64,000 nucleotides of DNA. It comes from Hadesarchaea archaeon. GTDB taxonomy: Archaea; Hadarchaeota; Hadarchaeia; Hadarchaeales; Hadarchaeaceae. The DNA lies in assembly GCA_029259175.1 (NCBI GenBank), contig JAPDJH010000004.1:32001-96000 (forward strand), written 5' to 3'. The notes under the pieces are model-generated. The model was given only the letters and a program-made list of their open reading frames with translations. It was not told the origin of the DNA and searched no databases. The position numbers and the translations under genes were made by a program. Of the stretch, positions 14,484 through 54,532 are shown piece after piece (within the stretch, counting starts at the first letter, position 1; each line of letters starts with the position of its first letter).

Positions 14484-15728
14484 TTTCTTGATCGCTTTCT
14501 CAACGCCCATCTGTTCTTGCTTCCCCGACTTCATATCCCGGAGCACCACACGCCCAGCCGCTCGCTCCGCCGGGCCTATGAGCACCACGTAAGATACGCC
14601 GAGCGCGTTCGCGTGGGCGAGGGATTTCGCGAGCTTTCGATCGGCGAGCTCTAATTCAGTGGAGATGCCTTGGCGTCGGAAGTCCAATGCTATTCTAAAG
14701 GCCTCTGGAACGTCTTCTCCCGTAACGGGGATCACCATCACTTTTGGTTCCGTGGAAAACGACAGAGATTTCGATTCTAGAACCAGCTTGGCCAAACGAT
14801 CGACGCCGAACCCCACGCCTGTGGCGGGGGTGGGGGGTCCGCCTAGCGTTTCAACGAGAGTATCATAACGTCCCCCGCCAGCGACCTGCACCCCCCGCAC
14901 GTAGATCTCAAAAACCACTCCGGTGTAGTAATCGAGCCCGCGCGCTATGCTCAAATCGACGCTGAACGGTATTTTCAAAGAGCGCAAGAAATTCAGGATT
15001 CGAGCAAAGTCCTGCAGAGAAGACCTGTCGACAAAAGTTGACGGAAGTTCCTCCAGGACATCCGGTGTGCCCTTGGTGGAAAACACCTTTTTGAGTTCTT
15101 GGGCTCTGTCACTGCTCATGCCCGCCCGCTTCAGTTCACGGTCAATGCGCTCTTCATCTTTAGAATCTACGGCGCGGAGGATTGGATCTTGGTCTCTTTC
15201 TTGAACTCCCGATGCCCTGAGGGCCCTGCGAAGGATGTCCACGTTGCCTATTCGTAGATCCCAAGAGGAGAACCCCAATTCCCTCATTGCTTCAGTAGCG
15301 GTAAGGATCACTTCAACATCGCACGCGGGGTTGCTGCTCCCTATCACTTCGGCCCCGGCTTGGTAGAACTGTCTCCACCGGAAGGCTTGGGGCTCCTCAT
15401 AGCGGAAGCAGTGCCCAAAGTAGCAGAGCTTGAGTGGTTTTGGTGCGGACTTGAGATGCTGAGCATAGAGCCGGATCACGGGCGCTGTGAGCTCCGGTCT
15501 CAGGGCCAGATCGCGGCCGGATTTGTCTCTGAACGCGTAGAGCTGTTTAACCACCTCGCTGCCGCTCTTGCGTGTAAACAAGTCCAAATGTTCAAACATG
15601 GGTGTCTCGACCTCCTGATATCCGAATCTTTGAAACACTGAAGCGAGAGTTTTGGTGACCCCGCGTATGCTATTCAGTTCCTCTCCCATGAGGTCCCGAG
15701 TTCCTCGAGGGGTCTGAAAATCAGTCAA
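14466..15728 (-). CDS. hisS: histidine--tRNA ligase
   Basis: PRGTRD, LRPELTAP, FRYEEPQ, RQFYQ, RGLDYYTG, GGGRYD. Confidence 0.97.
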   Translation of the reverse strand: MTDFQTPRGTRDLMGEELNSIRGVTKTLASVFQRFGYQEVETPMFEHLDLFTRKSGSEVVKQLYAFRDKSGRDLALRPELTAPVIRLYAQHLKSAPKPLKLCYFGHCFRYEEPQAFRWRQFYQAGAEVIGSSNPACDVEVILTATEAMRELGFSSWDLRIGNVDILRRALRASGVQERDQDPILRAVDSKDEERIDRELKRAGMSSDRAQELKKVFSTKGTPDVLEELPSTFVDRSSLQDFARILNFLRSLKIPFSVDLSIARGLDYYTGVVFEIYVRGVQVAGGGRYDTLVETLGGPPTPATGVGFGVDRLAKLVLESKSLSFSTEPKVMVIPVTGEDVPEAFRIALDFRRQGISTELELADRKLAKSLAHANALGVSYVVLIGPAERAAGRVVLRDMKSGKQEQMGVEKAIKKLKPIT

Positions 15729-17938
15729 GTGATCACCGAATGATTTACTTTGTAAATCCTAACATATTGGTTCGAACTGGTAAAGACTTCATCCAAGAAA
15801 TCAATGCCCCCCACGTCACGGATGGCCACCGGCAGCTCACGGTTCGAGACCTCGGCGGAAACCCCCTCGACCAGTTTGGCTTGGGTCACCTGATTGTTAT
15901 TCACGAAGACCAGCAGGGTTTCGTCGATGGCGGGGGATGAGGGCGAATAGAACTGAGCAGAGTAGTCAAAGCGGCGGCCTCCGATCAAAGACGGGTTATA
16001 GAAGAGAAATGCAAATCCGTCCAGTTCTTGCTGGGAGCCTCCCGACTCCACGTACGCGCGGCCAGCATTCTGGTCGACTACCACTCGCTCACGGCCGGAA
16101 CCGAAGTTGAAAACCAGTTTGTTTCCTTCCTGCGTGATGCTAGTGGTGCTCCGGAGCTCCGGTGAACCCAAAAGGATCGGAACAGGTTCCCAGTACTGAT
16201 AGTACTTGTAGGCGTTGGAGATCTCGTCTATGGTGAACAAAATATAGTCGATGCACACACCATACTCATCGCGATAGGTCTTCAGGTACCATCGCAGCTC
16301 GTTCTCGGTTGAGTAGGGGAAGAACTGAATGTCTGGTCTGCGTCCGTTCACCGTGTACGCGCGCGCGCCCTCGTTGACCCCGTACATGTAAGCTCGGCCG
16401 TTTTTGACATAGTAAATGTAATCCGGCGGGCGAGGCGTGAAAGATGGGTTGTTCTCCCATGTCCCCTCTTGGGCTGTGACCTCAGTTCCGTCCACAACAG
16501 TCATGCGATCGGTCGCGCCAGTTAAGAGGTGGCCAAAAGACCATTGAATCGAGATAATATCGTTTTCAGATGTGTTGGTCTGAATCCAGTCGAAAGCCTC
16601 CATGAGAGCGGGATCAAGACCAATTCCGTGCCATTCAGTTGGAGGGGTGGTAACACGGGCAGCGGAGACCGCATTGTAAAAAAACGCGGCAGAGAAGAAG
16701 AGAACCACCACCAACACCAGCAAAGGGCGCTGAAAGCTTTTCAGCCATTCCCAGTTGGGATCGAAGCTCAGATCTCTGAGCCACCGAACAATGGTCGCTG
16801 CCCCCAGTCCAGCCATAACGGGGACGAAAGGCCACCACACACGCTCAAAACGGGCTTGTCCCTTGCCCGGCCATATGAGTGCCAATAAGACGATAAGGGT
16901 GGCCAGCAACAATAAATGGGGTCTCTGCCGCTTCCAGATACACAGAATCAAGGTCACTCCGACGAAGAGGAGAACAATGTTTGTGATTAATGGATCTCGG
17001 TAAAAAGATCCTATCACGTCGTTCAGAGAAGAAGGAGCCTGCATCTCCGACGCGTAACGGGGAAAGGCGATCCCCGCTCCCCCGCCGAGCGGAATTCCCA
17101 GATATCCGAGCATGGTGGTGGAAAAACCAATCCAAAAGTTAGGAGAAAGCCCTGTGAGCCCACAGTAGACAATCGTGGCTATCACCAAAACCGCGATACA
17201 CCCTAAGAGAAACTGAAAGTGGGTTTTAATCGCGTGATAGGCTGCACCATAGAGGTCGTCAAAGCGTTTCATCAACTTGCCTCCAAAAGCTAGTAAAAGC
17301 ACGAAAATTATCCCTAGCGCCAACGCAGCTGTGATATAGAGCGCCCCCGTCCAGCAGAAAAGGAACAATCCCATGAGAAGACCGGCCAGCAGGGTATCTC
17401 GCGCTAGCGTTTCTCGGTTGGTCTTGAACAAGCGGACTAATCCGTAGAAAGTCCACGAAGCGAACAGGGTTATGGTCGGCTCACGGTCAAATGCCCCGAT
17501 CTTGTGCCAATAGATAGTGGAGACCATGGTGGCCATAAAGAAGACCGCAAAAATGCCGGCCGCGCGCCCGCCGAGTTCTCGAGCCGTCAGATAGACAGGG
17601 ATGAGGGTCAAGCAAAAAAGAAAGGGACCGTAAAATCTAACTACATCCATTAAAGAAACGGAAGGCGACAGTGCATGAACTCCCCGATAAATCATCACGG
17701 CAAGCAGGGGTTGAAGCTGCTGAGGCTCGAACTTCCATCCATACGGGGCGTGCGACCAAGGATTGGTCTCTGCCAGCCCATTGGTTGAGTTGATTACCTT
17801 GGCCTCATCATATACCCAGCCACTGTCGGAGGTCGTGAGAGTGTCATAGCGCTCACCCGGTATAGACACTATTGAGAACGAGAGCCACATCATCGCAAGT
17901 AGATAGACAACTATTGCCCATTTCCAATATCTGCCCAT
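15725..17938 (-). CDS. aglB: STT3/AglB-family oligosaccharyltransferase with non-canonical WWDYG motif (QWSFG)
   Basis: Multi-TM N-terminal part with TTSD, FDRE, ASE and ARF at the expected catalytic positions; soluble domain A..WI..NT..D....QWSFGH......R.TV.DG. Confidence 0.85.
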   Translation of the reverse strand: MGRYWKWAIVVYLLAMMWLSFSIVSIPGERYDTLTTSDSGWVYDEAKVINSTNGLAETNPWSHAPYGWKFEPQQLQPLLAVMIYRGVHALSPSVSLMDVVRFYGPFLFCLTLIPVYLTARELGGRAAGIFAVFFMATMVSTIYWHKIGAFDREPTITLFASWTFYGLVRLFKTNRETLARDTLLAGLLMGLFLFCWTGALYITAALALGIIFVLLLAFGGKLMKRFDDLYGAAYHAIKTHFQFLLGCIAVLVIATIVYCGLTGLSPNFWIGFSTTMLGYLGIPLGGGAGIAFPRYASEMQAPSSLNDVIGSFYRDPLITNIVLLFVGVTLILCIWKRQRPHLLLLATLIVLLALIWPGKGQARFERVWWPFVPVMAGLGAATIVRWLRDLSFDPNWEWLKSFQRPLLVLVVVLFFSAAFFYNAVSAARVTTPPTEWHGIGLDPALMEAFDWIQTNTSENDIISIQWSFGHLLTGATDRMTVVDGTEVTAQEGTWENNPSFTPRPPDYIYYVKNGRAYMYGVNEGARAYTVNGRRPDIQFFPYSTENELRWYLKTYRDEYGVCIDYILFTIDEISNAYKYYQYWEPVPILLGSPELRSTTSITQEGNKLVFNFGSGRERVVVDQNAGRAYVESGGSQQELDGFAFLFYNPSLIGGRRFDYSAQFYSPSSPAIDETLLVFVNNNQVTQAKLVEGVSAEVSNRELPVAIRDVGGIDFLDEVFTSSNQYVRIYKVNHSVIT

Positions 17939-17986: not shown

Positions 17987-18262
17987 CTACTTCTTTTTCT
18001 TCTTTTCCTCTTTGGGGCTCTCCGTAACTGGTGCCACTTCTTTCGTGGTTGCCATGATCCACCCGAGCCAGACGCCGAGCGCTGAAACCACCCATACACC
18101 TACCGCCACAGGAATAACGATGAACCAAGACGAAGTCGTCGCGTACTCGAAGAGACCAAAGTTAAGCCAACCGAGTTTTGCCAGCACGAAGCCCACGTAC
18201 AACGCGAACACGATGGCCCCGACAACACAGAGCACTGCACCAAGGGCTCTTGTCTTTCCCAA
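17987..18262 (-). CDS. small two-TM membrane protein, DPM2/PIG-P-like pattern
   Basis: Two hydrophobic helices, IPVAVG...G.W.G.IMATT, Lys-rich tail; TTG start preceded by GGGGTGA. Confidence 0.75.
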   Translation of the reverse strand: MGKTRALGAVLCVVGAIVFALYVGFVLAKLGWLNFGLFEYATTSSWFIVIPVAVGVWVVSALGVWLGWIMATTKEVAPVTESPKEEKKKKK

Positions 18263-22782: not shown

Positions 22783-24342
22783 ATGAGAGAAAGTTACGCA
22801 AAATACATAGTCAAAGGTGGTTCGGCTGTTTTCCTAGCGTTAATAATAAGCCAAATTTTAGCATTCGGGATTCGGGTATTTCTCGCTAGACCACTTCTTC
22901 AGCAAGACCTAAGCGCAGGAGTCCCAGAGGGATATCACTTTGGATTAGTATACGGAACTCTCGCATTTATTTCGCTTTTTCCCCTTTTCAGAAATATAGG
23001 CATACCAACTGCACTAATAAAATATGTTTCCCAGTACTTTACGCAAAGAAGATTCAAACAAATAAAATCATTGTTTTTCTCTGCTCTCACGCTTCAACTT
23101 TCATTGTCAATTTTAATAGCAATACTGATAATAGTTTTCGCCGAACAAGTCGCGTTTAATGTCTTCAAAAGCCCAGAAGCCACATTATTGATCCAAATAC
23201 TCGCGCTTTGGTTGATTGGAGACTCGGTCTTCACAGTGATATTAAGCTCATTTCAAGGCCTTAAAAACATGCTTACTTACTCCATTATTCGATGTTTACA
23301 TTCCTTTTTACTTCTGGCTCTCATGATAGCATTTGTAGGATTTTTAGACTTGGGCGCATTGGGTGCGATTATCGCATACACAGTCAATGTGATTTTTGTC
23401 TCAATATTTGGGATGTTCAAATTGTTCAAAAGTTATCCTAAAATCTTCAAAAAAATAAAACCTCAGATCTCCATGCACTCTGCCAAAATCTTAGTAAGTT
23501 TTGGTATTCCGGTCTTTTTGGGATCTATAGCCAGCATGATTCTAACCTCGATGGACACAATCATGATCGCCTTCTTTAGAACCCTGCCTGAAGTAGGACT
23601 CTACCAGGCAGCACAGCCCACGGCCAAATTTTTATGGTATTTTCCAATGACTTTGAGTGTTTTGACTTTACCAATGTTTTCCGAGATATGGGCACGCAGA
23701 GATAAAAAACTATTACAAAATGTTCTCTACATATTAACTCGCTTCTCCTTTTTTCTGATTATTCCTGCATGTTTTCTTTTCATCGCTTTTCCTGGCGAAA
23801 TTTTGCGAATATTGTTTGGTGAAGAATACGTGGCCGGTGCCACGGTACTCCAAATATTGGCTGTGGCCGCAATTATCTATACTGTGTATAGCATATTGGG
23901 TCAAACGATTATAGGAATTGGAAAACCTATTGTAGGCTCGATTACTGTTGCGATAATGGCAGTAATAAACTTGATTCTTAACATTTTGCTTATCCCTTCA
24001 TCGGGCATTGTTGGTGCTGCGCTTGCAAGTCTTTTTGCTTACATGATTGGTTTCATTTTCCTGTTTAACTATTTGCAAAAATTAATGAAATTCCAAATTT
24101 TGGACATTTCAATTTTCAAGATGGCCGTTGGCGGTGTTTTGACTCTTTTGATTATCTTTGTGCTGAAATCATTTCTAAATTTTCAACCATTAGTTGAAGC
24201 CGCTGTTTTATTGATTTTAGGTACCGCAATTTATCTTCTATGGACATTGAAAACCAATGCAATAACCCAAAGCGATCTCCTAATGATAAAAAATGTAGCA
24301 CCAATACCTAAATGGATACTGAAAATCGCCAAGCGCAAGTAG
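22783..24342 (+). CDS. Wzx/MOP-superfamily oligosaccharide flippase
   Basis: Many TM segments, DTIMIAFF....VGLYQAA, NILLIP..GIVGAALA. Confidence 0.92.
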   Translation: MRESYAKYIVKGGSAVFLALIISQILAFGIRVFLARPLLQQDLSAGVPEGYHFGLVYGTLAFISLFPLFRNIGIPTALIKYVSQYFTQRRFKQIKSLFFSALTLQLSLSILIAILIIVFAEQVAFNVFKSPEATLLIQILALWLIGDSVFTVILSSFQGLKNMLTYSIIRCLHSFLLLALMIAFVGFLDLGALGAIIAYTVNVIFVSIFGMFKLFKSYPKIFKKIKPQISMHSAKILVSFGIPVFLGSIASMILTSMDTIMIAFFRTLPEVGLYQAAQPTAKFLWYFPMTLSVLTLPMFSEIWARRDKKLLQNVLYILTRFSFFLIIPACFLFIAFPGEILRILFGEEYVAGATVLQILAVAAIIYTVYSILGQTIIGIGKPIVGSITVAIMAVINLILNILLIPSSGIVGAALASLFAYMIGFIFLFNYLQKLMKFQILDISIFKMAVGGVLTLLIIFVLKSFLNFQPLVEAAVLLILGTAIYLLWTLKTNAITQSDLLMIKNVAPIPKWILKIAKRK

Positions 24343-24376
24343 TTTTTAGTATCTTATCGAAAATGATGGTGGAATC

Positions 24377-25258
24377 ATGAGAATATGTATCGTGGGTGGG
24401 GGCACCGTAGGAAGCGCGGTTGGTATGGGACTTGCAAAATTGGGACACGAAATAGTGTTTTATGATGTCGAAGAGCAAAAAACACGAGAGCTTAATAAAA
24501 AAGGATTTAGAGCTACCACAAACTTTGAAGAAGCTATTCAGAACACAAATATGTCGTTCATATGTGTTCCCACCCCCACTATCCGGGGAAAAATTTGTCT
24601 ATCTCACGTTAAGGACTCTATCAAAAAAATCGCCAATTTTCTGAAACATCATGATAAGTATTACCTCGTCGTCATTAAGAGCACAGTACTTCCAATGACA
24701 ACGGAAAAGGTTATAATTCCGCTCATAGAGAAGATTTCGAAAAAGAAAGTTGGTAAAGATTTTGGTGTGTGCGTAAATCCAGAATTTCTAACAGAGTCTC
24801 ACAAAAGTTGGACTAAAAACAGGCGTTTTGCAAGGGATTTTTTCAGCGAAGACAGGATAGTTATCGGTGAATCCGATAAAAAAGCGGGAAACGTTCTCGT
24901 ACGACTGTATAAACCACTGCGAATCCCTATCATTAGAACCGATTTGCGAACGGCAGAGACTATAAAATATGCTTGTAACTGTGCGCTAGCCTGCAGGATC
25001 TCCTATTGGAACGAAATATATTATGTGTGCAAAAACATTGGCGTAGACTCTCATTTTGTGGCTCGTGTAGCAGCCATGGACGAAAGAATAGGCGTCTATG
25101 GAACCGTGCATGGTAAGGCCTTCGGTGGAAAATGTTTGCCAAAAGATTTGAAAGCCTTTATAGCATTTTGTAAAGAGATCGGTTATAGACCACGACTCTT
25201 AGAGGCTGTCGACTTAATCAATGAAAAAATCAGAAAAGAAGAGGGGATAAGAGAGTGA
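24377..25258 (+). CDS. UDP-glucose/GDP-mannose dehydrogenase family, short form lacking the C-terminal domain
   Basis: GGGTVG, CVPTP, KSTVLP, NPEFL, AETIKY.CN, FGGKCLPKD; 293 aa. Confidence 0.88.
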   Translation: MRICIVGGGTVGSAVGMGLAKLGHEIVFYDVEEQKTRELNKKGFRATTNFEEAIQNTNMSFICVPTPTIRGKICLSHVKDSIKKIANFLKHHDKYYLVVIKSTVLPMTTEKVIIPLIEKISKKKVGKDFGVCVNPEFLTESHKSWTKNRRFARDFFSEDRIVIGESDKKAGNVLVRLYKPLRIPIIRTDLRTAETIKYACNCALACRISYWNEIYYVCKNIGVDSHFVARVAAMDERIGVYGTVHGKAFGGKCLPKDLKAFIAFCKEIGYRPRLLEAVDLINEKIRKEEGIRE

Positions 25259-26013
25259 TCAAAAAAGGTATTGTCCTTGCGGCTGGGAAAGGCTCCAGAT
25301 TATTTCCCCTAACGCTCGCAATTCCGAAGGAGATGATTCGAGTTGGTGTCAAGCCCGCGATCGAACATGCCATAAATGTTCTAAAAGCCGGAGGAGTTTC
25401 CGACATTCTAATAATCGTCGGAAGAAACAAAGAAGCCATTTTCAACTATCTAGGCTCTGGAAAAAGACTGGGTGTTCAAATCTCTTATCGCATTCAAGAG
25501 GAGCTACTGGGAACCGCCGATGCCACTTACTACGGAAAGGACTTCGTCCAAAATGAAGATTTTGCTTTGATTTATGGAGACAATTATCTCAAACCATACA
25601 ACGTTATGAAAGAAGTTGTCAAAGTTCACGAAGAAAGCAACGCAGATGCTACGCTCGTATTATCCTTAGTGAAAGATCCAAGGCAACATGGGATCGTTAA
25701 AATTGACAAAGAAGGGTGGATAACACGTATGATCGAAAAACCCACTCTTAGTGAAGCCAGACCTTTTCGACACAATAGAAAATATCTCAGCATAGCTGGA
25801 CTAATGATCCTTAAACCAATTATTTTTAGATACATAAAGAAAACAAAACCTGGCAAGAATGGGGAAATATGGCTCACCGACACTCTCGAACTCATGAGAA
25901 GAGATGGAAAACGTGTTCGAGGATTTATTTTTAATGGTGAACGATACGATATCGGAACCTTGGAATCTTTAATAGAAGCAGATAAACTCGAATACAAAAA
26001 TTTCAAGAAATGA
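25255..26013 (+). CDS. sugar-phosphate nucleotidyltransferase
   Basis: LAAGKGSRL.P.T..IPKEM, LGTA, GD, IEKP, GEIWLTD, DIGT. Confidence 0.92.
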   Translation: MIKKGIVLAAGKGSRLFPLTLAIPKEMIRVGVKPAIEHAINVLKAGGVSDILIIVGRNKEAIFNYLGSGKRLGVQISYRIQEELLGTADATYYGKDFVQNEDFALIYGDNYLKPYNVMKEVVKVHEESNADATLVLSLVKDPRQHGIVKIDKEGWITRMIEKPTLSEARPFRHNRKYLSIAGLMILKPIIFRYIKKTKPGKNGEIWLTDTLELMRRDGKRVRGFIFNGERYDIGTLESLIEADKLEYKNFKK

Positions 26014-27226
26014 ACTGCCTCACAATATTAAAAGGAAAACGAAACCTGTTTTTAAACCACCAGGGGAGGGCAGAATAGCTTGAATATGCCATCCTAGTTA
26101 AAAGAACTCTGAATTCGGAAGGGTTGAATTCCAATTGATATCTCTTTACTGCGGAATTATCTAGTTCTACTCCCAACCCTCCGGCCGTTGGAAGTTTTAG
26201 ACATCCGCGAGTGAGGCCTATTGGTTTTTTGATAATATCATATCCTCGAATGTTAAACAGCCCAATTTCCTCGCTGGGGTATTGGATCTCTCTAAGCGAA
26301 GCAACCAAATGCATATAAGCGGAAACACCAACACCGCTCATCACCGCCCCGCCAATCACATATTCAAGACCCAAATCTAGAGCTTTTTCAATCAATTTTC
26401 TAGTCACGGAAAGACATCCAAACTTCGGAGGATGGAAATTCACAACATCTGCAACTTTTTTTGTTGCTATTAGGTCAATGTCCGACGGTTTCCACACGCT
26501 TTCATCGACCATTATCTTGATATTAGTCATTTTTCGAAGTTTTCGAAGACCATCCCAGTCACGCCATCTTATTGGTTGCTCAGCAATGATTATTCCATGC
26601 TCTTCGAGTTTTCTGAGAGTCTTTGCAGCTTTTTCAGCTTTTTCATAGGCCTGATTGGCATCTATCCTAAGCGCGATGCGGGGGCCCACCGCTTCTCGGA
26701 TTTGTTTTACGATTTTACAATCAATGTCCTCATTGCCTGTTACTTTTATTTTGAGATGGGTGATGCCTTGGGATGTCCAATACTTGGCAAATCTAACCAT
26801 TTCGGAAATCGGTGCCAGATATACCGTTCCTGTTGCAGGTATTTTTTTTCTGTAAATTTTGCCCAATTCTTTGGCCATTACAAATCCACTAGCTTTGCTT
26901 AGAGCGTCTAAAATTGCTGTTTCAAAAGCCAGCAAGATTCCATAATCGACTATTCGATTTTGAACCAAACGTTCTTGAATTTTGGACAAAGCTTCCAAAG
27001 CATCCGGAAGTTTTTGACCTTGTATGGTCTTGGCTATCTTTATCCCCAACGCGTGAGAATTGTAAGCGTGAGTGTAGAACGGCGTACCTTCTCCCACCCC
27101 CTCCGTCTCAGTGGTCCGTATTTTTACAAGAATGTGATTTCGGTATTTTTCTGTCCCCCACGGTAACCTAATATCGAGAGGGAACCTCAAGAGATAGATT
27201 TCAGAACGGAGGATTTTTGCCATCAA
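26003..27226 (-). CDS. enolase-superfamily (muconate cycloisomerase/racemase-like) protein
   Basis: GVGE, KIK, IDAN, EQP, DES, GLGVELD. Confidence 0.85.
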   Translation of the reverse strand: MMAKILRSEIYLLRFPLDIRLPWGTEKYRNHILVKIRTTETEGVGEGTPFYTHAYNSHALGIKIAKTIQGQKLPDALEALSKIQERLVQNRIVDYGILLAFETAILDALSKASGFVMAKELGKIYRKKIPATGTVYLAPISEMVRFAKYWTSQGITHLKIKVTGNEDIDCKIVKQIREAVGPRIALRIDANQAYEKAEKAAKTLRKLEEHGIIIAEQPIRWRDWDGLRKLRKMTNIKIMVDESVWKPSDIDLIATKKVADVVNFHPPKFGCLSVTRKLIEKALDLGLEYVIGGAVMSGVGVSAYMHLVASLREIQYPSEEIGLFNIRGYDIIKKPIGLTRGCLKLPTAGGLGVELDNSAVKRYQLEFNPSEFRVLLTRMAYSSYSALPWWFKNRFRFPFNIVRQFIS

Positions 27227-27247
27227 ACATTCATGGCAAAAAGTGTT

Positions 27248-29056
27248 TTAGCCCTTTTCGATCCAAGCCTCATGCCAAAGTGTAAGACCCAACAGGACCC
27301 ATAACTTCTCAAGATTAAGAACGGGATTACTCATTAATCGTCTCACATATTTTCTATTGAAATATTTTCCGAGATCCGTTTTCCACAATTTATCATCGAT
27401 TGTTTCGAAGAGTGATTTCAAGAACCGCTCATCTCGAGTGATGTGAGATCCGAACCCTATCTTTTTTTTGTAAAGCGTGGTCGGCGGCAAAAGATCTAAC
27501 ATGCTCTTCTTGAATAGGTATTTGCCTGCCGGTCCCTTCGCATTCATGCGAGGCGGGATACAAAGAGCATAGGTAATGAATTCCATATCTAGATATGGAT
27601 AGCGTACTTCGATACCTGGCAGAGCCACATACTCGCCAAGTCTAAATAATTTCTCGGGAAGTCTCCCCTTAAATTCCACTAGTGAAACAATGTGGTAAAA
27701 GTCGTTAAACCCCATCCCAAACACATTGGGGGTGTCGAAAAACGAAAACGAACTCCTGAATTGAAGATCAAACATTTTCCTTTTTTCCCATTCACAAAAA
27801 ACTACTGACCAAAACGGTATTCCGTGTCTACTTCTTAGAAGATCTGGTAGAAGCTCAGAAATGATGCTTCGCCTGACACCCCCAACCAGATTGGTGGCAA
27901 AATTGACCAAACTTTTTGGAAAGACCTTCAGAGATCCCGCCAATTGGTGGGCCACAAATAACCAGCGGTAAATAGGATATCCACAAAAAAGTTCGTCCGG
28001 TCCTAAACCATTTAACCAAAGGTTAATTTTCCTCTTTCTCATTTCTCTGAAGATGTGGTGCATAAAAACAGCCACGGCATGAGATATGGGTTCGGGACTG
28101 CTCTCCACCATGTCGGACAAGTAAGCTCGCACGTCTTCGTGAGAAATGACAGACTCGTAATGTTGGGTGCCAAACTTTTCCGCTACTTGCTTTGCATCCG
28201 AGAATTCGTTATAAACACTTCCTTCCATGCTTGTCGCAAATGTGTAAATTGGTCTGTCACATAATTGGGACGCGAAAGCTACTAGGGCTGCAGAGTCTAT
28301 CCCTCCACTAAGAGGAATCCCTATTCTAGCTTCTCGATCAATTCTCTTTTCAATGATACGTGGAAGCATTTCTCTGATTTTCTTCACGGTCTTCTCTTCA
28401 CTCTCGTTATAATTGATTTGGATGTCTAGCATTTCCCAATATTTCTTCTCTCGGACTGAACCTTTTTCACAGATAAGCACCGTTCCAAATTTCAATTTTT
28501 TCATCCCTTGGTAAAGCGTAAGCGGAGGAGGGACAAATCTCAAAGTGAGATAATGGTATACTGCTTCCGTGTTTACTTGTGGTTTTATTACGTCAGCATT
28601 TAAAAGTACTTCAAGTCTAGAAGAAAAAACAAGCTGATCATCCACCGGAACATAGTAAAGTGGGGATTCCCCAATCTTGTCTCGTGAGAGAAGCAGTCTC
28701 TCCCTTTTAGAATCCCAAACTGCTAGTGAAAAGGGGCCGTTTAACATCCCTATAAACTTAGTGTCGTATTTCAGATAGAGATATGCCGCGAGCTCTGCAT
28801 CGCTTGTGATTTCATTTTTTTTAGAAAGTTGTTGTTTTAACCAATCAAAATTATAAATTCTTCCGGAAAAGGCGACCACGATGGATTTATCGTTGTTGTA
28901 GCCAACTACCGGTCCTTCTGATTTAAAATCTCTGGTTCCCAGCAAAATTACTTTGTTGTCAACATAAGAATCTGAAGGACGGCCGATGGCTTTTTTTAAT
29001 TTGCTTAAATATTGCTCGGCATTAGGTCCACATGCTCCAGCTATAAGACCCATCAT
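27248..29056 (-). CDS. asparagine-synthetase-like ATP-dependent amide ligase with degenerate glutaminase domain
   Basis: RDKIGESPLYY, LSGGIDS, GLGPDELFCGY, EVRYPYLD, KKKIGF; N-terminus MGLIAG. Confidence 0.88.
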   Translation of the reverse strand: MMGLIAGACGPNAEQYLSKLKKAIGRPSDSYVDNKVILLGTRDFKSEGPVVGYNNDKSIVVAFSGRIYNFDWLKQQLSKKNEITSDAELAAYLYLKYDTKFIGMLNGPFSLAVWDSKRERLLLSRDKIGESPLYYVPVDDQLVFSSRLEVLLNADVIKPQVNTEAVYHYLTLRFVPPPLTLYQGMKKLKFGTVLICEKGSVREKKYWEMLDIQINYNESEEKTVKKIREMLPRIIEKRIDREARIGIPLSGGIDSAALVAFASQLCDRPIYTFATSMEGSVYNEFSDAKQVAEKFGTQHYESVISHEDVRAYLSDMVESSPEPISHAVAVFMHHIFREMRKRKINLWLNGLGPDELFCGYPIYRWLFVAHQLAGSLKVFPKSLVNFATNLVGGVRRSIISELLPDLLRSRHGIPFWSVVFCEWEKRKMFDLQFRSSFSFFDTPNVFGMGFNDFYHIVSLVEFKGRLPEKLFRLGEYVALPGIEVRYPYLDMEFITYALCIPPRMNAKGPAGKYLFKKSMLDLLPPTTLYKKKIGFGSHITRDERFLKSLFETIDDKLWKTDLGKYFNRKYVRRLMSNPVLNLEKLWVLLGLTLWHEAWIEKG

Positions 29057-29112
29057 TTCACAATCATTTCATTCAATTTTAAACCTTCTAGCGTTGACAT
29101 TCAAGCGATAAC

Positions 29113-30096
29113 ATGGGGTCTCCGCTAGTCTCAGTGATAATGCCGGTCTACAACGCTAGCAAATATCTCCCAGAGGCCATTGAGGGAATTCTCAACCAAA
29201 GCTTTTCGGATTTTGAATTCATCATAATAGATGATGGATCTTCTGATGATAGTCCTAAAATTATCAGGAAATATGTAAAACGGGACAAGCGAATAAAGGT
29301 TCTGACCAACAAAGAGAACAGAGGTTCTGTAAAATGTAGAAACATGGGGTTAAAATTGGCTCGTGGAAAATATGTCGCTGTTGAAGATGCAGATGATGTC
29401 TCTCTTCCAAATAGGTTGGAAGTTCAGGTACAATATCTAGAAGATAATCCCCAAGTTGTCCTGTTAGGGACTTCATATCATATCATAGATGAAACCGGAG
29501 AAATATTGACAACTGTCGAAGTTCCAACCAAAGATAAAGTACTGAGAAGGATATTGCTCAAGAATAATCCTATCGACCATGGTTCCATAATGTTTAGAAG
29601 GAAGGAAATATGTAGAATAGGAGGATATCGAGAAGAGTTTGTATATGCCCACGATTATGATTTGATTTTGAGAGCACTAGAAATCGGAGAAATCCACAAC
29701 CTTTCTTCAATTCATCACAAGTGGAGATTTAGAAAAGAATCCATCTCCGCTAAAAAATTTGCTCTCCAAACTGCCTTCAGCAGATTAGCTCGAAAACTAG
29801 CTCTCGAACGTTTGAACTACGGACGTGAAATAAGTCCTCTAAAACCCGAGCCTATGAGGTTCCAAATCGATCCTGAAATTCAGTTTCAGCTTAGAGTGTG
29901 TAAAATGCTCGTATGGGGCGGTAAGTTCAAAAGGGCCAGAAAAGAAGCTTTAGTACTAATGAACAATCCTGCCATTTCGTCTTGGATCCGAATCTATCTT
30001 TCGGCGCTCTATCTCTGGACTCATATGGGAAAGATAGCGTACCCTCTTCAAAGAAAAATCATTAGTACTCTTCTAAATCAAGGAATCATACTCTAA
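29113..30096 (+). CDS. glycosyltransferase family 2
   Basis: VSVIMPVYN, IDDGSSD, DADD, DYDL. Confidence 0.93.
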   Translation: MGSPLVSVIMPVYNASKYLPEAIEGILNQSFSDFEFIIIDDGSSDDSPKIIRKYVKRDKRIKVLTNKENRGSVKCRNMGLKLARGKYVAVEDADDVSLPNRLEVQVQYLEDNPQVVLLGTSYHIIDETGEILTTVEVPTKDKVLRRILLKNNPIDHGSIMFRRKEICRIGGYREEFVYAHDYDLILRALEIGEIHNLSSIHHKWRFRKESISAKKFALQTAFSRLARKLALERLNYGREISPLKPEPMRFQIDPEIQFQLRVCKMLVWGGKFKRARKEALVLMNNPAISSWIRIYLSALYLWTHMGKIAYPLQRKIISTLLNQGIIL

Positions 30097-31244
30097 CATC
30101 TTTTTAGAACACCGAGAAGAATTTTGTGGATTTTTTTCGAGTTATTCTCCGCATTGAAATTCCTTTGTGCATATTTGTAAGCTTTTTCAACAATTCGTCT
30201 GAGCTTCTTAGGATTTCGTAATACTTGAAGTATTTTGGTGGCCAGTTCCCTATGATCGCCGGGAGTATATAAAAAACCAGTTTTCCCATCATGCACGAGC
30301 TCTGGTGTGGCTCCCGATCGAGCGCCAATCACCGGAAGTCTACTAAGCATTGCTTCGATGGTAACTAGACCAAACGCTTCAGACCGAGAACATACTAAAA
30401 ACACATCGGCCTGAGTTCTAATTGAGGATAAATCTGGGACTCTGGAGAAAAACACCACCTCATTCTTAACTCCTACTCTCTCAACTAGATCCTCCAGTTC
30501 CTTTTTATATGGAGATCCATTACCAACAATCCAGAGCTCTGCTTTCAATCCAACTTTCTTCAGTTCTAAAATCGCCCGTATGGCATCTGAATGCCCTTTA
30601 TTAGGATGAAGTCGTCCAACCATCAACAGGATGATTTTTTTCCGCGATTTTTTTCTTCTTTGCTTCAGATTAGCCTCCACACCATCATAGACCACGTGCA
30701 CCTTACTTTTTGGGAAAAACCTGCCAAATTTCTTCCTCACAGCTTTTGAAACTACGATAACTTCGCATGACATTCGATCTACCAACTTCATCGTTCTACG
30801 GAGACCTAAATCAAAGTGGAGTCCGAAATCTTCCTCAATGAATTCTCGGATATGCCACACGTGAGGTTTGCCGACTAAAATTGCTGCTACCCCTCCAACA
30901 GGCGACACCAACGCATTAGAATAAATAAGGTCTACATCTAGCTCTCTCGCTTTAGAAGCTATTAATACAGAGAAAAGTCCTATGTTTAAAACTTTCAGGA
31001 TTTTTACTATCATGTCGAAAAATGGATTTCTCTTTGGGCTGGCCCACCACGCTGGAAGCAATTTTCGTGTAAGTACAACATAGTGTATTCTTGCCCTTTT
31101 CAAATCGTTTTCGAAATTTCCACGATTAGGTAAAACAACATAGCAATCGACCCCAAGCTTACGCAAACCTTTAATCAGGCTCAAAAGAGCCACGTTTGAG
31201 CCGTCATATCTACTACTAGAAAACGTCACAAATAAGACTTTCAT
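30093..31244 (-). CDS. glycosyltransferase family 4
   Basis: WHIRE, VGRL...KG, EAFGLVTIEAM. Confidence 0.93.
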   Translation of the reverse strand: MKVLFVTFSSSRYDGSNVALLSLIKGLRKLGVDCYVVLPNRGNFENDLKRARIHYVVLTRKLLPAWWASPKRNPFFDMIVKILKVLNIGLFSVLIASKARELDVDLIYSNALVSPVGGVAAILVGKPHVWHIREFIEEDFGLHFDLGLRRTMKLVDRMSCEVIVVSKAVRKKFGRFFPKSKVHVVYDGVEANLKQRRKKSRKKIILLMVGRLHPNKGHSDAIRAILELKKVGLKAELWIVGNGSPYKKELEDLVERVGVKNEVVFFSRVPDLSSIRTQADVFLVCSRSEAFGLVTIEAMLSRLPVIGARSGATPELVHDGKTGFLYTPGDHRELATKILQVLRNPKKLRRIVEKAYKYAQRNFNAENNSKKIHKILLGVLKRC

Positions 31245-31255
31245 TTTCTGTTCAC

Positions 31256-32104
31256 CTATTCTACCTCAAACCAAGGTACTTCCAGAAGCGCTGGATGAGA
31301 ATAATCAAAAATGTGTCCGTAAAATCCATCTTCTCCTAAAAGCTCTCCGTGATCAGAGGTTATCACCGTTTTTCCAGGCAATTTTTTCACAAGTTTTGCG
31401 ATGTGTTTTAACACATTTTCTACTTCTCGGCGATATATTTCACGCAGTCCCTCTTGCCCATATTTTTTCGCAATTATTTCGATATACTGAAAATCCGCCA
31501 AACCTAGTTTTTTTCTAATTTTTATTGTAGTCACAGGGCCTAACACTCTACTCGCCAATCTGCCGAGCAACGCACGTAATTTAGTTATGCTTTGATAGGA
31601 TAAATCTTTCTTGAGCGAAGAATTCCAAGCGGGGGGGATGTAACCTAGAGTTAGATATGGCGTGTGGGGCTGCAAGTAATGCGCTATTATTTTTTTTCCA
31701 GGAAATTCCTTTTTCACTTGCAACACAGCCTCGTTCATAACTAATGGTGGAACCGTGTTATACTTCCGATCCCATCCATAATCCCACACGTCGATTATTT
31801 TGTAAAAATGCCCCACGGCATTGAATGCATCTTTGCTTCCCGCCGCGATCCCTTTAGAGTTAACATAAGGATGAGCCGAAACATAAACAACATTGGTCAA
31901 TCTTTTGTTGCCGAACAAAGCCTTAAGCCAGCCTTGGGTGTCCGAAGCTGGGGAGAGAACTTTCTTCAGCTTGCCACGCAAATATTTCTTATAGACAATT
32001 TCGAATACGTCGTATCTGCATGCATCAAGAATTATCAGGTTATCCCAATTAAACCGCATTATATGGGAGACTTGAGCCTCCATAGTGTTTATCCCTCCTA
32101 ACAT
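31256..32104 (-). CDS. AlkP/sulfatase-like core-domain protein
   Basis: LIILDACRYD, SPASDT..W, HYLQPHTPY, ITSDHGE, EVPW; true start may be a later Met. Confidence 0.85.
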   Translation of the reverse strand: MLGGINTMEAQVSHIMRFNWDNLIILDACRYDVFEIVYKKYLRGKLKKVLSPASDTQGWLKALFGNKRLTNVVYVSAHPYVNSKGIAAGSKDAFNAVGHFYKIIDVWDYGWDRKYNTVPPLVMNEAVLQVKKEFPGKKIIAHYLQPHTPYLTLGYIPPAWNSSLKKDLSYQSITKLRALLGRLASRVLGPVTTIKIRKKLGLADFQYIEIIAKKYGQEGLREIYRREVENVLKHIAKLVKKLPGKTVITSDHGELLGEDGFYGHIFDYSHPALLEVPWFEVE

Positions 32105-32152
32105 CGTGCTCTAAAGTCTTATAATGATCTGATGTTTATGTGTTTTGAAATC

Positions 32153-33211
32153 ATGAAAGCTCTTGTCCTTAGTGGCGGAAAAGGAACTCGCTTGCGTCCC
32201 CTCACTTTCACTACAGCAAAGCAACTAATTCCCATAGCTAACAAACCCATTTTGGGTTATGTTCTTGACAGAATCTCAGAAGCCGGAATCAAAGAAGTTG
32301 GTGTCGTAATTGCTCCCGAGACCGGCGCAGATGTCAAACGATACGTGGGCGACGGCTCAGATTGGGGATTGAGAGTTTCTTATATAGTCCAAGAACCACT
32401 GGGGCTCGCACATGCGGTGAAAGTATCGCGCGGGTTTTTGGGGAATGATGACTTTTTAATGCATCTGGGAGACAACCTTTTAAAGAAAAATCTGGGAGAG
32501 CTAATTGACAAATTCGAATCTGAGAAGCCTGATGCCTTAATCCTGCTAAAGGAGGTCGAGGATCCAACAAAATTCGGAGTGGTGGTTCTGGACAACAAAG
32601 GAAATGTTGTGAAACTCGTGGAAAAACCCAAACAGCCACCGAGTAAGCTAGGATTGGTGGGAGTTTATCTTTTCTCGAACAAAATCCATTCTGCGATAGA
32701 TGAAATCAAACCGTCGTGGCGAGGAGAGCTGGAGATTACTGACGCCATCCAGAAACTCGTTGACAAAGGATGCTTCGTGAAAGCCGAGATACTAGATTCT
32801 TGGTGGCTAGATACCGGAAAAAAAGATGATGTCCTCGCTGCCAATGCTCTTGTTTTGGACGAATACATTCAGCGAGACGTTAAGGGAGAAGCCATTGGTA
32901 GCACGATTGAAGGCAGAGTTAGTGTTGGTTCGGGGACTAAAATCATCGGAAGCGTTGTCAGAGGCCCCTGTGTAATCGGAAAAAAATGCATAATTGAGAA
33001 TTCATTCATCGGACCATATACGAGCGTTGGGGACGAATGCTTAATCAAGAACAGCTCCATCAACTATTCCATCATAATGGAGAGAACAATTATTGAAGGT
33101 GTTGAAACATTGGAGGAATGTTTGATAGGGCGAAATTGCAGAATCCGAAGCGAAGACCGTTCAAAAACGTTTAAGTTGTGTGTTGGGGATTATAGTGAGG
33201 TGAAAATTTGA
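32153..33211 (+). CDS. rmlA: glucose-1-phosphate thymidylyltransferase, long form
   Basis: LSGGKGTRLRP.T...AKQL.P.ANKP, PLGLAHA, EKP, RGELEITD, DTG, beta-helix C-terminus. Confidence 0.92.
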   Translation: MKALVLSGGKGTRLRPLTFTTAKQLIPIANKPILGYVLDRISEAGIKEVGVVIAPETGADVKRYVGDGSDWGLRVSYIVQEPLGLAHAVKVSRGFLGNDDFLMHLGDNLLKKNLGELIDKFESEKPDALILLKEVEDPTKFGVVVLDNKGNVVKLVEKPKQPPSKLGLVGVYLFSNKIHSAIDEIKPSWRGELEITDAIQKLVDKGCFVKAEILDSWWLDTGKKDDVLAANALVLDEYIQRDVKGEAIGSTIEGRVSVGSGTKIIGSVVRGPCVIGKKCIIENSFIGPYTSVGDECLIKNSSINYSIIMERTIIEGVETLEECLIGRNCRIRSEDRSKTFKLCVGDYSEVKI

Positions 33212-33738
33212 GCGATCTCGGTCTCAAAGGAGTGCGAGTCATCGATTTAAAGCGGATTCCAGACGAACGCGGATTTTTCTGCGAAGCCCTTCGAAAGGAC
33301 TGGCAGAAGTTTTTAGAAAACGAATGGATTGAGCAGGCCAACATAAGCTATAGTTATCCCAACGTGGTGCGGGCATGGCACAGGCACCACCGCGGACAAG
33401 TTGACTATTTCTTAGTATTACAAGGAGCCATGAAAATATGTGCCTACGATGACGAAGAAGGATCGGAAACCAAGAACCATCTAGTAGAAATCTTCTGCAC
33501 AGAACATAGACCACAACTTGTAAGGATTCCAGGCCACTACTGGCACGGTACTAAAACCGTGGGAAATAGACCATCTCTCACAGTATATTTCGTGACAAAA
33601 TTATACGATTACAAAAACCCAGACGAAGAACGGAGGCCTTGGAACGATCCAAGCGTGGTTCCAATTTGTATAAATGGAAAAAAAGACGATCCACGCGTAG
33701 GAAAGCCATGGGATTGGTTTTATCCCGTGCATAAATGA
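33208..33738 (+). CDS. rmlC: dTDP-4-dehydrorhamnose 3,5-epimerase family cupin
   Basis: DERGFFCE, RAWH.H..Q.D, IP..YWHG. Confidence 0.88.
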   Translation: MSDLGLKGVRVIDLKRIPDERGFFCEALRKDWQKFLENEWIEQANISYSYPNVVRAWHRHHRGQVDYFLVLQGAMKICAYDDEEGSETKNHLVEIFCTEHRPQLVRIPGHYWHGTKTVGNRPSLTVYFVTKLYDYKNPDEERRPWNDPSVVPICINGKKDDPRVGKPWDWFYPVHK

Positions 33739-34655
33739 CCATGCCGACAGTTCTCCTTACCGGCGTCAGCAGTTTGCCTGGCTACCAAACCGCCATTCAC
33801 TTGCTTCGCCTAGGTTATCAGGTCGTTGGAATTTACTTTAAAAACAAAATAAGGCTTGACCACCAAAATTTTAAACTAAAAAAGGCAGACATCACAAACC
33901 CCGGACTAATCACCAAGCTCGTAAAGAAAATCCAACCTGAAGTTATTGTCCACATGGCCGCACTGGGGAATGTAGATCTTTGCGAGACCGAGAAAAAGCT
34001 AGCATGGCGTACCAACACCTTGGCGTCTGCTCACTTAGCACGTCTGGCTTCAAGATACTCGCCTCAGTTTCTCTATCTCTCGACTGATTTCGTTTTTCCG
34101 GGCAAGGACGGAAATTATAGGGAGCTAGATCCACCAAATCCAATTAATTATTATGGACTCAGCAAACTTGGGGGGGAAATCGCTACTTTGAGTTCGAACA
34201 CCACTTGGGCAGTCGTCAGGGCAAGCTCGATATATGGTTTTGGGCCAGGTAGGAAAAATTTTGCGAAATTTTTGGTAGAGCGGCTTTCTCAGGGGCTGAA
34301 AGTCGGAGCACTCGTGGATCAGTACACTACACCCACTCAAGCTTCTCTGCTGGCAAAAGCGGTGTGTGAAATCATAGAAAGAAAACTCTGCGGGTTCTTC
34401 CACGTTGTAGGGGAGCGAATGAGCAGATATGAATTTGCCATAAAAGTGGCGAGCACGTTGGGTTTCGATAGATCACTTATCCAAAAAGCATATGTTAAAG
34501 ACATGAAATGGGTTGCAAAAAGACCGATCGATTCTAGTCTGAACTGTGAAAGAACTAGAAAGCTCCTCAAAACGAAGTTCTATTCGAGCTCCATCGCTTT
34601 TAGGGTTCTCAAGGAAGAGTACCAAGCAGTTATTAAGACCCCAAAAGCAAACTAA
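33735..34655 (+). CDS. rmlD: dTDP-4-dehydrorhamnose reductase family
   Basis: VD.CE, STDFVF.G, P.NYYG.SK..GE, DQY.TPT, RP.DSSL. Confidence 0.88.
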   Translation: MTMPTVLLTGVSSLPGYQTAIHLLRLGYQVVGIYFKNKIRLDHQNFKLKKADITNPGLITKLVKKIQPEVIVHMAALGNVDLCETEKKLAWRTNTLASAHLARLASRYSPQFLYLSTDFVFPGKDGNYRELDPPNPINYYGLSKLGGEIATLSSNTTWAVVRASSIYGFGPGRKNFAKFLVERLSQGLKVGALVDQYTTPTQASLLAKAVCEIIERKLCGFFHVVGERMSRYEFAIKVASTLGFDRSLIQKAYVKDMKWVAKRPIDSSLNCERTRKLLKTKFYSSSIAFRVLKEEYQAVIKTPKAN

Positions 34656-34659
34656 TGTG

Positions 34660-35643
34660 ATGAACATTCTTGTCACAGGTGGTGCAGGTTACATAGGGTC
34701 TGTCTTAGTGCGGGATCTCGTGAAAGAAGGTTACAACGTAAAATGCTTAGACCGATTCTTTTTTGGAAAATCTTCGTTATCGGAGCTAACAGATCAAATC
34801 GAAATAATTGAGGGCGACACCAGAAACTTTGACCCGAAAATTCTGAGAAATACAGATGTTGTCATCGATCTAGCCGCCATAGCTCAGCCCGATCCAGCGG
34901 GACTGGTAGATCCCCTAAAATTTTACGATATAAACTACTTGGGCCCTGTGAGAGTGGCCACTCTTAGCAAAAAGGCGGGGGTGCAACGATACATTTTCCC
35001 TTCCACATGCAGCACTTATGGGTGTCAAAACATCGTGCTCGACGAAAATTCCCCTTTAAAACCTTTGGAAATATACGCTGAAACCAAAAGCATGGCTGAA
35101 AAAGCCGTTTTGAGTCTCTCAGACGATAAATTTTGTGTAACCAGCCTCCGATTAGGAACCGTTTACGGAGTTTCACCGAAGATGAGATTCGATCTCGTGC
35201 TGAATGGAATGACTTTATCTCTTTTCAAAACGGGAGTGATAAAAGTCATGCGAGATGGTAATCAAGTGAGACCGATTGTACACGTAAGAGATGTGGCTAG
35301 AGCCATTCTCACGGTAATCGAAGCCGACATGGACAAGATACGAGGAGAAGTTTTCAATGTAGGATCCAATGATCAAAATTTCAAAGTGTTGGAACTAGCA
35401 AAGCTCATAGGTGATTCTATCGGGATAGATTATAAGATCGAATGGTATGGAGACCCGGATACCAGATCCTACCGAGTTAGCTTTGACAAAATATACAACG
35501 TTTTAGGATTTAGGGCAAAATTTTCTGCACAAGAAGGTGCAAAAGAGGTTTACGAGGCACTACAAGAGGGCAAAATAGAAGATTCAGAAAAGACTCGAGT
35601 CATCAGGTGGTATAAACATCTTCAAGACCAGGGCATCCTCTGA
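34660..35643 (+). CDS. NAD-dependent epimerase/dehydratase (extended SDR)
   Basis: VTGGAGYIG, STCSTYG, YAETK, RFDLVLN; start moved to ATG 34660. Confidence 0.9.
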   Translation: MNILVTGGAGYIGSVLVRDLVKEGYNVKCLDRFFFGKSSLSELTDQIEIIEGDTRNFDPKILRNTDVVIDLAAIAQPDPAGLVDPLKFYDINYLGPVRVATLSKKAGVQRYIFPSTCSTYGCQNIVLDENSPLKPLEIYAETKSMAEKAVLSLSDDKFCVTSLRLGTVYGVSPKMRFDLVLNGMTLSLFKTGVIKVMRDGNQVRPIVHVRDVARAILTVIEADMDKIRGEVFNVGSNDQNFKVLELAKLIGDSIGIDYKIEWYGDPDTRSYRVSFDKIYNVLGFRAKFSAQEGAKEVYEALQEGKIEDSEKTRVIRWYKHLQDQGIL

Positions 35644-35659
35644 CTCTTCATGTGGTAGA

Positions 35660-36673: not shown

Positions 36674-36677
36674 TAAT

Positions 36678-37634: not shown

Positions 37635-37708
37635 TAAAAGTTGTAAACATCTTTATAGAGATTTTCCCGGAACTCCTTATAACTGATAGAAAGATATGAA
37701 AAATATGT

Positions 37709-43789: not shown

Positions 43790-43794
43790 CCGCT

Positions 43795-44988: not shown

Positions 44989-44997
44989 TTTCCTCCC

Positions 44998-45759: not shown

Positions 45760-45762
45760 AAG

Positions 45763-46770: not shown

Positions 46771-46772
46771 TC

Positions 46773-49096: not shown

Positions 49097-49100
49097 CTGC

Positions 49101-51291: not shown

Positions 51292-51297
51292 ACGTAT

Positions 51298-54352: not shown

Positions 54353-54383
54353 TTCTAGGACCTCACTTCTATTTTTTTCCCCT

Positions 54384-54391
54384 CATATAAA
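54384..54391 (-). promoter_or_regulatory. putative TATA box of the nonulosonate operon
   Basis: GAA-TTTATATG on the minus strand about 32 nt before ATG 54352, in a 180-nt gap that splits the minus-strand gene run. Confidence 0.45.
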
Positions 54392-54532
54392 TTCGTTAGA
54401 CGCTGTTTTCTGGAAAGTGCTCTTACTATATTTCAGACTGCCTTCGCTAAATGAAAACTCCTCATCGTTTAGTATGGATGTGAGAGTAACTCGGATCCTC
54501 TGTTCTCGAACTACATAACACGCCAACATTGT

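Follow-up and report, generated by a model that had tools for sequence, protein, structure and literature searches.

The oligosaccharyltransferases (OSTs) of the STT3, AglB and PglB type, which we take to be family GT66 of CAZy, act through a small set of shared motifs. In this work, a member of this superfamily was analyzed that is encoded in a 64,000-nucleotide stretch of DNA from a Hadesarchaea archaeon of the deep subsurface (assembly GCA_029259175.1, contig JAPDJH010000004.1, positions 32,001 to 96,000; hereafter the window), and in which the motif WWDYG is replaced by QWSFG. The canonical archaeal enzyme, exemplified by A. fulgidus AglB-L (PDB 3WAJ, 5GMY and 7E9S), has the same single-subunit architecture, in which a multi-helix membrane domain is joined to a globular C-terminal one; the two proteins have in common the Asp of external loop 1 (EL1), the DxD/DxE motif, the Glu of external loop 5 (EL5) and the conserved Arg. 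The Hadarchaeota protein differs from it in having QWSFG for WWDYG, no recognisable DK/MI motif, DGGK reduced to DG, and an extra segment of ~50 residues. Its identity to the A. fulgidus enzyme is ~15% in a structural alignment, and the profile E-value is only 7e-4. The best fold and sequence matches of the protein are eukaryotic STT3 subunits (yeast, PDB 8AGE; human STT3A, PDB 6S7O), in which the same helix bears the motif and the same C-terminal 'VRIYKV'-like strand is present. The eukaryotic enzymes, however, possess WWDYG, the Lys of the DK motif (K586 in yeast) and DNXTZNX[T/S], and belong to a multi-subunit complex; none of those motifs was recognised in the Hadarchaeota protein. PglB of Campylobacter lari (PDB 3RCE and 5OGL) has the same fold and the same catalytic residues; it carries WWD and MxxI and also reads an acidic residue at position -2, and none of these motifs was seen in the Hadarchaeota protein.

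Reviews, PMC8479172 among them, describe WWD as strictly conserved or state that every AglB has it. Variation of the WWDXG 'catalytic motif' has been noted among the extra copies of Archaea with several aglB genes (Kaminski et al. 2013, as cited in the accessible portion of PMC5131992). In those multi-copy Archaea the variant stands beside a canonical copy, whereas in Hadarchaeales the variant is the only copy found and is fixed in the order. The literature found on Hadarchaeota together with OST, N-glycosylation or AglB does not describe this variant, which may nevertheless be listed in Kaminski 2013 or in Nikolayev 2020, a survey of AglB motifs across Archaea. The gene and its motif have the following positions in the window:

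15725..17938, minus strand: aglB-like gene coding for a 737-amino-acid (aa) oligosaccharyltransferase of the STT3 superfamily (open reading frame list, Pfam STT3, AlphaFold model and fold matches)
16532..16546, minus strand: Q465-W466-S467-F468-G469, the positional equivalent of WWDYG (sequence and profile alignments)

The plus strand at 16532-16546 reads GCCAAAAGACCATTG, and its reverse complement, CAA TGG TCT TTT GGC, codes for Q465, W466, S467, F468 and G469. Only the second Trp and the Gly of WWDXG are therefore kept in the 737-aa protein. The register of this assignment was determined in three alignments. With the use of phmmer against human STT3B, for which a structure has been solved, 'iisiqwsfghlltgatdrmtvvdg' was placed over 'vmswwdygyqiagmanrttlvd', and yeast Stt3 was aligned likewise. 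A profile of the 31-member clade run against the PDB placed 'vvaieWSyGhlltgvaerasvvD' over 'vmswWdyGyqitamanrtilvD' of STT3A (E 5.5e-22). In the case of hhalign, the 31 clade members and 34 canonical AglBs were aligned over 633 columns in the same register, with a probability of 100 and an E-value of 5e-55. Together with the fold comparison, the three alignments confirm that QWSFG lies on WWDYG, as a reading of the sequence alone (hereafter the sequence-only reading) had claimed.

The same reading had assigned the protein to the AglB/STT3 type, and the searches with family profiles and fold comparisons agree with it. The protein scores 29.4 bits with Pfam STT3 (PF02516), above the cut-off of 24.5 (E 7.4e-7, residues 63-286). 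With NCBIfam TIGR04154 (archaeo_STT3, the archaeosortase-A-associated OST) it reaches 32.9 bits, far below the cut-off of 450. The Pfam STT3-PglB core PF21436, which contains WWDYG, has no match at E <=10 in the whole genome and is absent from the Pfam scan of the protein. The fold was modeled by AlphaFold2 on the clade alignment, with a pLDDT of 91.3 and a pTM of 0.86. The model has the glycosyltransferase C (GT-C) fold, that is, an N-terminal multi-helix membrane domain followed by a C-terminal mixed alpha/beta globular domain. When it was compared with the PDB by Foldseek, the best 19 entries were all PglB, STT3 or AglB (E 5.5e-17 to 9.4e-13). In VIA-align, the highest scores were obtained with yeast Stt3 (Z 36.4, root-mean-square deviation (rmsd) 3.3 over 511 residues) and human STT3A (Z 36.1), followed by A. 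fulgidus AglB (Z 32.8, rmsd 3.2 over 482 residues) and C. lari PglB (Z 28.3). The OSTs as a whole gave Z 26-36 over residues 1-734, and the next family, ArnT, gave Z 23.6. This indicates that the protein is a clear AglB homolog, which stands in for AglB in this genome. As WWDXG, DK/MI and the PF21436 core, three sequence marks by which AglB is defined, are all missing, it was not classed as a canonical AglB but given a subfamily of its own within the STT3 superfamily.

The residues on which catalysis depends were located with the use of hhalign, profile alignments and the clade alignment (31 sequences, 30-63% identity):

17825..17827, minus strand: D38 (TTSD), on the catalytic EL1 Asp (PglB D56, Stt3/AglB D47) by hhalign, conserved in at least 90% of the clade
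17480..17488, minus strand: D151-R152-E153 (FDRE), at the second metal-binding motif (DxD/DxE), where it pairs with 'gsfDnE' in STT3B and with the corresponding part of the canonical profile
17045..17047, minus strand: E298 (YASE), on the Glu of the EL5 motif TIXE/SVSE, aligned to the TVAE consensus and invariant in the clade
16850..16852, minus strand: R363 (QARF), on the conserved Arg (PglB R375, Stt3 R404) by hhalign and the STT3A profile alignment, invariant in the clade

D151 and R152 are conserved in at least 90% of the 31 sequences, and the FDRE motif varies to FDRD in 6 and to FDHE in 1 of the 25 orthologs that cover it. According to the available part of PMC7226087, which also deals with the roles of the EL1 Asp and the other catalytic residues, the conserved Arg contacts the phosphate of the lipid-linked donor. 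By alignment, the membrane-domain residues for the metal, the donor phosphate and the acceptor amide (D38, D151/E153, E298 and R363) are all kept. The sequence-only reading had listed TTSD, FDRE, ASE and ARF as retained; hhalign and the conservation within the clade bear this out, and the metal ligands are not lost.

A different picture was obtained for the acceptor side. In known enzymes, the pocket that binds Ser/Thr is made up jointly of WWDYG and the DK/MI motif, and DGGK or DNXTZNX[T/S] comes after (PMC8342417, available text). In the clade alignment, W466, S467 and G469 are invariant. The DK/MI motif is unrecognisable at the sequence level, since in hhalign the near-invariant canonical Lys meets an unconserved column of the clade. 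The available part of PMC8479172 states that in human OST the DK Lys may hydrogen-bond the Asp of WWD; both partners of this pair were lost together in the clade. In place of DGGK or DNXTZNX[T/S], only D483-G484 was found, with no Lys and no double sequon. The STT3A profile alignment ends at D483 and picks up again only at the last strand. The features of this part of the protein are:

16487..16492, minus strand: D483-G484, the remnant of DGGK without its Lys, on the DG of canonical 'DGg..N' and invariant in the clade
16334..16486, minus strand: clade-specific segment of ~50 residues (485-535), which follows the motif helix and is a gap in the canonical AglB profile
16421-16429, minus strand: invariant P504-P505-D506 within the clade-specific segment
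16337-16345, minus strand: invariant G532-R533-R534 within the clade-specific segment

Further residues, W494, Y507, D536, Y555 and D564, are near-invariant in the clade. As judged from these alignments, the half of the protein predicted to bind the donor and the metal is conserved, and the putative acceptor-reading half is rebuilt.

The genome from which the window comes (G000) is a 1.31-Mb assembly of 23 contigs with 90.9% completeness. A single STT3 homolog was found in it by PF02516, by the protein itself and by TIGR04154, and a six-frame scan for WWDxG-like words gave none in an STT3-like frame. A search for an aglB paralog with WWDYG, which the sequence-only reading had proposed, thus returned none in this genome. 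A second OST candidate, on contig C5 (TIGR04154, E 0.058), was rejected; it is an 889-aa PMT_2-type GT-C protein with a propeller-like C-terminal part. Orthologs of the AglB-like protein were present in 39 of the 41 related genomes searched. Among the 29 ortholog sequences extracted, the motif starts with QWS in 17 and with EWS in 12, and continues with F, Y or H and then with G-H, so that the conservation check suggested earlier gave [Q/E]-W-S-[F/Y/H]-G-H in 29/29.

A search of 1.84 billion cluster representatives revealed a compact family, with 46 proteins at E <=1e-30 and 57 at E <=1e-10. Among the best 49 representatives, 44 cover the site; 41 of these have W-S, preceded by Q, E, P or H (one reads QWSFA), the remaining 3 have W-A or W-E, and WWD occurs in 0. 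The listed matches with E >1e-10 in which the motif was found mostly carry WWD[Y/F/P/A/G]G, the exceptions being YWDYG (P0091), EWDYG (P0142) and YWSFG (P0099). The distribution was also followed in a phylum set of 66 genomes, consisting of 65 genomes of the window's order and G041, the sole genome of the sister order. The canonical core PF21436 was found in 0 of the 65 genomes of the order. In G041, it matches a 637-aa AglB that reads AWWDYGYW and lies beside a Glycos_transf_4 gene (locus L035, 256-1224, plus strand), and the clade profile finds nothing further in that genome. PF02516 gave at most one locus per genome of the order, save in three genomes; one of them, G015, has a second STT3-like locus, and the clade paralog P0006 (EWAIGH) is of this kind. 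The replacement of WWD holds across the order, and a canonical core was found only in the one sister-order genome. The NCBI record of one clade member, P0164, is labelled 'Candidatus Hodarchaeaceae archaeon', which is an Asgard family name. Its near-identical relatives share the GTDB family of G000, and the label is probably a mix-up of the names Had- and Hod-.

Comparison with a strain from another sample gave further information on the gene. This strain differs at 16538 (TCT>TCA), 16544 (CAA>CAG) and 16547 (ATT>ATC), and all three changes are synonymous by codon reading. Of the differences listed inside the gene, 14/17 fall at third codon positions; 28 more in the 5.9-kb stretch are unlisted. 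The gene is under purifying selection. The claim that the motif change is not a one-base error holds, as xWS occurs in 29/29 orthologs and the strain differences at the motif are synonymous; the change is also a selected one, given the same 29/29 orthologs and the third-position bias. QWSFG is neither a sequence error nor the mark of a decayed paralog, and this variant of a known enzyme is genuine, kept by selection and spread throughout the order. In two metatranscriptome libraries of one sample, contigs cover parts of the gene at a depth of 2-4, which is a weak hint of transcription, as carry-over of DNA is possible.

The exception P0099 led to a second, unrelated and otherwise canonical AglB clade with a variable motif. 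It comprises 11 relatives (P0099 and P0151-P0160) with 39-53% identity, all metagenomic, which keep the PF21436 core and DGG. Seven of them have Ser as the third residue of the motif, three have Asp and one has Gly; the clade reads YWS, FWS, FWD, EWG and DWS (YWSFG, FWSLG, etc.), neither the central Trp nor the Gly varies, and two outgroups have WWD. P0099 and the Hadarchaeota protein are only ~25% identical (E 9e-6), and both have Ser at the third position of the motif. JGI labels one member of the clade 'asparagine N-glycosylation enzyme membrane subunit Stt3'. From the sequences, the Ser substitution in this clade looks independent of that in Hadarchaeota, and it is not fixed. The interchange of WS, WD and WG among close relatives suggests that Ser can stand for Asp without a change of the enzyme's task. 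The WWD motif is less invariant in nature than the reviews state. A more diverged group of STT3-like metagenome proteins was also met (P0045, P0047, P0051, P0054 and P0055), with DWEIG, HWELG, PWPVG, PFGIG or DWYLG at the motif position. In this group, DP replaces DG after the motif, and the annotation is 'hypothetical protein'. Members of two of its clusters each lie on a 250,561-base contig, possibly one and the same contig. These genes were not found in the 66 Hadarchaeota genomes searched, where their best matches are only the xWS aglB genes, at 29-32% identity.

Taken together, these data are best reconciled with a working N-oligosaccharyltransferase of a lineage-specific AglB subfamily that would still accept a hydroxyl at +2 (N-X-S/T), a reading drawn from sequence comparison that we regard as moderately probable. 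A dolichol-phosphate-linked glycan would be built by the nearby gene cluster described below, with an AglJ/PpgS-like initiator, GT2 and GT4 transferases and a flippase, and the AglB-like enzyme would move this glycan onto Asn side chains of secreted proteins. The +2 pocket may have been rebuilt around W466 and S467 with the aid of clade-specific residues. A hydroxyl at +2 would most probably still be accepted, perhaps with a looser or shifted preference, and a wholly new acceptor class appears less likely. Several points weigh against this picture. The Asp of WWD, which is lost here, is described as strictly conserved and as the hydrogen-bond partner of the +2 hydroxyl in the available parts of PMC7226087 and PMC8479172. 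The DK/MI residue that would complete the pocket is missing, so that retained reading of N-X-S/T is assumed, and the first position of the motif varies (Q/E/P/H), so that the lost Asp has no fixed replacement. In a 1929-aa surface protein, a hand count gave 113 Asn, 22 N-X(not P)-S/T sites and 13 S/T-X-N sites, numbers that are indistinguishable from composition and thus lend no support to the use of sequons. The literature found on Hadarchaeota with OST, N-glycosylation or AglB contains no experimental study or glycoproteome for any member of the phylum. In a control, PF21436 also missed the canonical AglB of Haloferax volcanii; owing to this insensitivity, the absence of a canonical copy rests on the PF21436 and PF02516 scans together. 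Since the assembly is 90.9% complete, a second OST could lie on a missing piece, in the case of G000 alone. The surface protein mentioned above is encoded at locus L036 (contig C7, 2-5788, minus strand). It is at least 1929 aa long, as it runs off the contig end, has a membrane helix at its N terminus, combines a CBM96 module with Kelch repeats, and is rich in Asn (113) and Ser/Thr.

The altered acceptor specificity that the sequence-only reading had put forward is plausible on sequence grounds. In its stricter form, the same enzyme and donor would operate with a rebuilt pocket that reads a residue other than Ser/Thr at +2, or that has no strict requirement at +2; we consider this possible, though unlikely. 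It would explain why the whole clade has changes in both motifs of the Ser/Thr pocket, why the DK Lys and the WWD Asp, possible hydrogen-bond partners in human OST according to the available part of PMC8479172, are both gone, and why new invariant residues, two Arg among them, occur in the insertion next to the motif helix; Asn would still be the likely target, as the Asp/Glu that hold its amide are kept. The idea is weakened by the retention of W466 and by the ability of Ser, and of Gln or Glu, to hydrogen-bond a hydroxyl. Furthermore, close relatives within the P0099 clade switch between WS, WD and WG, the hand-counted surface protein is not depleted in N-X-S/T (22 sites), and no STT3-family enzyme with a code other than N-X-S/T was met in the literature examined, as far as its available parts go. 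A more specific version, in which Hadarchaeales would pick Asn by another rule through a new pocket made of W-S and the PPD/GRR insertion, with a non-N-X-S/T sequon or no need for a +2 residue, seems to us slightly more doubtful still. An enzyme that has left N-glycosylation altogether, with Ser/Thr (O-linkage), a lipid or a polysaccharide as its acceptor, as in the GT-C proteins ArnT, PMT and DPY19, is improbable. The loss of the peptide-reading motifs and the presence of ArnT, PMT and DPY19 among the weaker fold matches (Z 21-24) agree with such a shift, as does the lack of any archaellin gene found in G000, archaellin being a classic N-glycoprotein. However, the OSTs score Z 26-36 against <=24 for the other GT-C families, the motif helix and the C-terminal globular domain in its entirety are retained and conserved, and the clade shows little or no variation in the Asp and Glu by which the Asn amide is activated. 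In addition, no other STT3 homolog was found that could carry out N-glycosylation, while AglB is near-universal in Archaea (166/168 genomes, according to the accessible portion of PMC5131992), and no evidence for O-linkage or a lipid acceptor emerged. The case for an inactive relic or a non-catalytic scaffold is very weak. It could account for the failure with PF21436 and the low TIGR04154 score (32.9 vs 450 bits), but it conflicts with catalytic residues that are invariant or nearly so in 31 sequences of 30-63% identity, with the third-position bias of the strain differences, and with the presence of the gene in 39/41 relatives; the metatranscriptome contigs, again with possible DNA carry-over, add a weak hint of transcription.

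The only OST homolog found in these organisms is under selection although it has neither WWD nor DK/MI, and it thus provides a natural experiment on sequon reading. If Ser replaces Asp and the DK/MI contact is dispensable, the textbook pocket would need revision. If the lineage reads another signal, the prediction of glycosylation sites in these genomes would change, and a new specificity would become available for glyco-engineering; a non-canonical code, if true, would make this the first STT3-family enzyme of such kind. Hadarchaeota have recently been obtained in enrichment culture (PMC10811742 and PMC11297162, available parts).

Directly upstream of aglB, a co-oriented mini-gene was found:

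17987..18262, minus strand: gene for a mini-protein of 91 aa, for which two membrane helices are predicted; 49 nt separate its end from the start of aglB

The mini-gene occupies the same place in 6/6 inspected loci, and its product has an invariant LGxWLGWIM..T..V stretch. The profile of the mini-protein was found in 56 of the 65 genomes of the order. It adjoins aglB in 36 of 39 genomes, lies 1.36 kb off in one, and sits on a different contig in two genomes with fragmented assemblies. In G041, a weak homolog is located beside a wecB-like epimerase and not beside the canonical aglB. Pfam DPM2 gave a weak likeness below the cut-off (E 0.0011) in 3/6 members. The nearest Atlas cluster scores 0.93, and the nearest clusters are small archaeal proteins named automatically after DPM2. 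The prediction of a complex of AglB with the mini-protein gave a score of 0.01 against a mark of 0.32, which speaks neither for nor against an interaction. The mini-protein may be an accessory subunit of the OST, or it may anchor the AglJ/PpgS-like synthase in the membrane. In the strain from the other sample (run X4), 80 bases at 17958-18039 are swapped for 78 others; this region covers the spacer between aglB and the mini-gene and the Lys-rich tail of the latter.

The genes beyond the mini-gene include the putative source of the glycan:

18332-18409, plus strand: tRNA-Arg (TCT)
20179-22229 and 18567-20182, minus strand: CysD (348 bits, over the cut-off) and a CysN/EF-1alpha-like GTPase, with a TauE-family permease and a type I phosphodiesterase-family gene next to them, between aglB and the cluster
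22783..60905: glycan biosynthesis cluster of ~38 kb (Pfam and NCBIfam scans)
22783-24342, within the glycan cluster: Wzx/MurJ-type flippase
58852..59523, minus strand: 223-aa GT2 similar to polyprenyl-phosphate sugar synthases (PpgS E 1.7e-46, AglJ E 6.7e-31, both below the equivalog cut-offs)

The cluster also holds sugar-nucleotide enzymes, GT2 and GT4 transferases, an Asn-synthase-like amidotransferase and a NeuB/CMP-sugar module. The sequence-only reading had described an adjacent 42-kb locus; a glycan cluster is indeed located nearby, but it spans ~38 kb (22.8-60.9 kb) and starts 4.8 kb from aglB. By its proximity, it is likely the source of the lipid-linked glycan for AglB. The 223-aa GT2 is a candidate for the enzyme that would start a dolichol-monophosphate-linked glycan. 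No initiating enzyme of the Glycos_transf_4 family (AglH/Alg7/WecA-type) was found in G000, and 0 of the 65 genomes of the order had one over the cut-off; this absence fits a dolichol-monophosphate-linked donor.

Upstream of aglB and past the tRNA-Arg, a TauE-family permease, a gene of the type I phosphodiesterase family and the CysD/CysN-like pair precede the glycan cluster. The pair suggests sulfate activation and, perhaps, sulfated glycans. Several metagenome assemblies break at ~18375-18405, inside the tRNA-Arg, with differing flanks, which indicates that the neighbourhood past the tRNA varies between strains or organisms. Elsewhere in the genome, the 889-aa PMT_2-type GT-C protein rejected above as an OST is encoded at locus L037 (contig C5, 1975-4644, plus strand) and is fused to a C-terminal domain that faintly resembles a GH32-like propeller. 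By its sequence, it would be a second transferase of lipid-linked sugars in this small genome.

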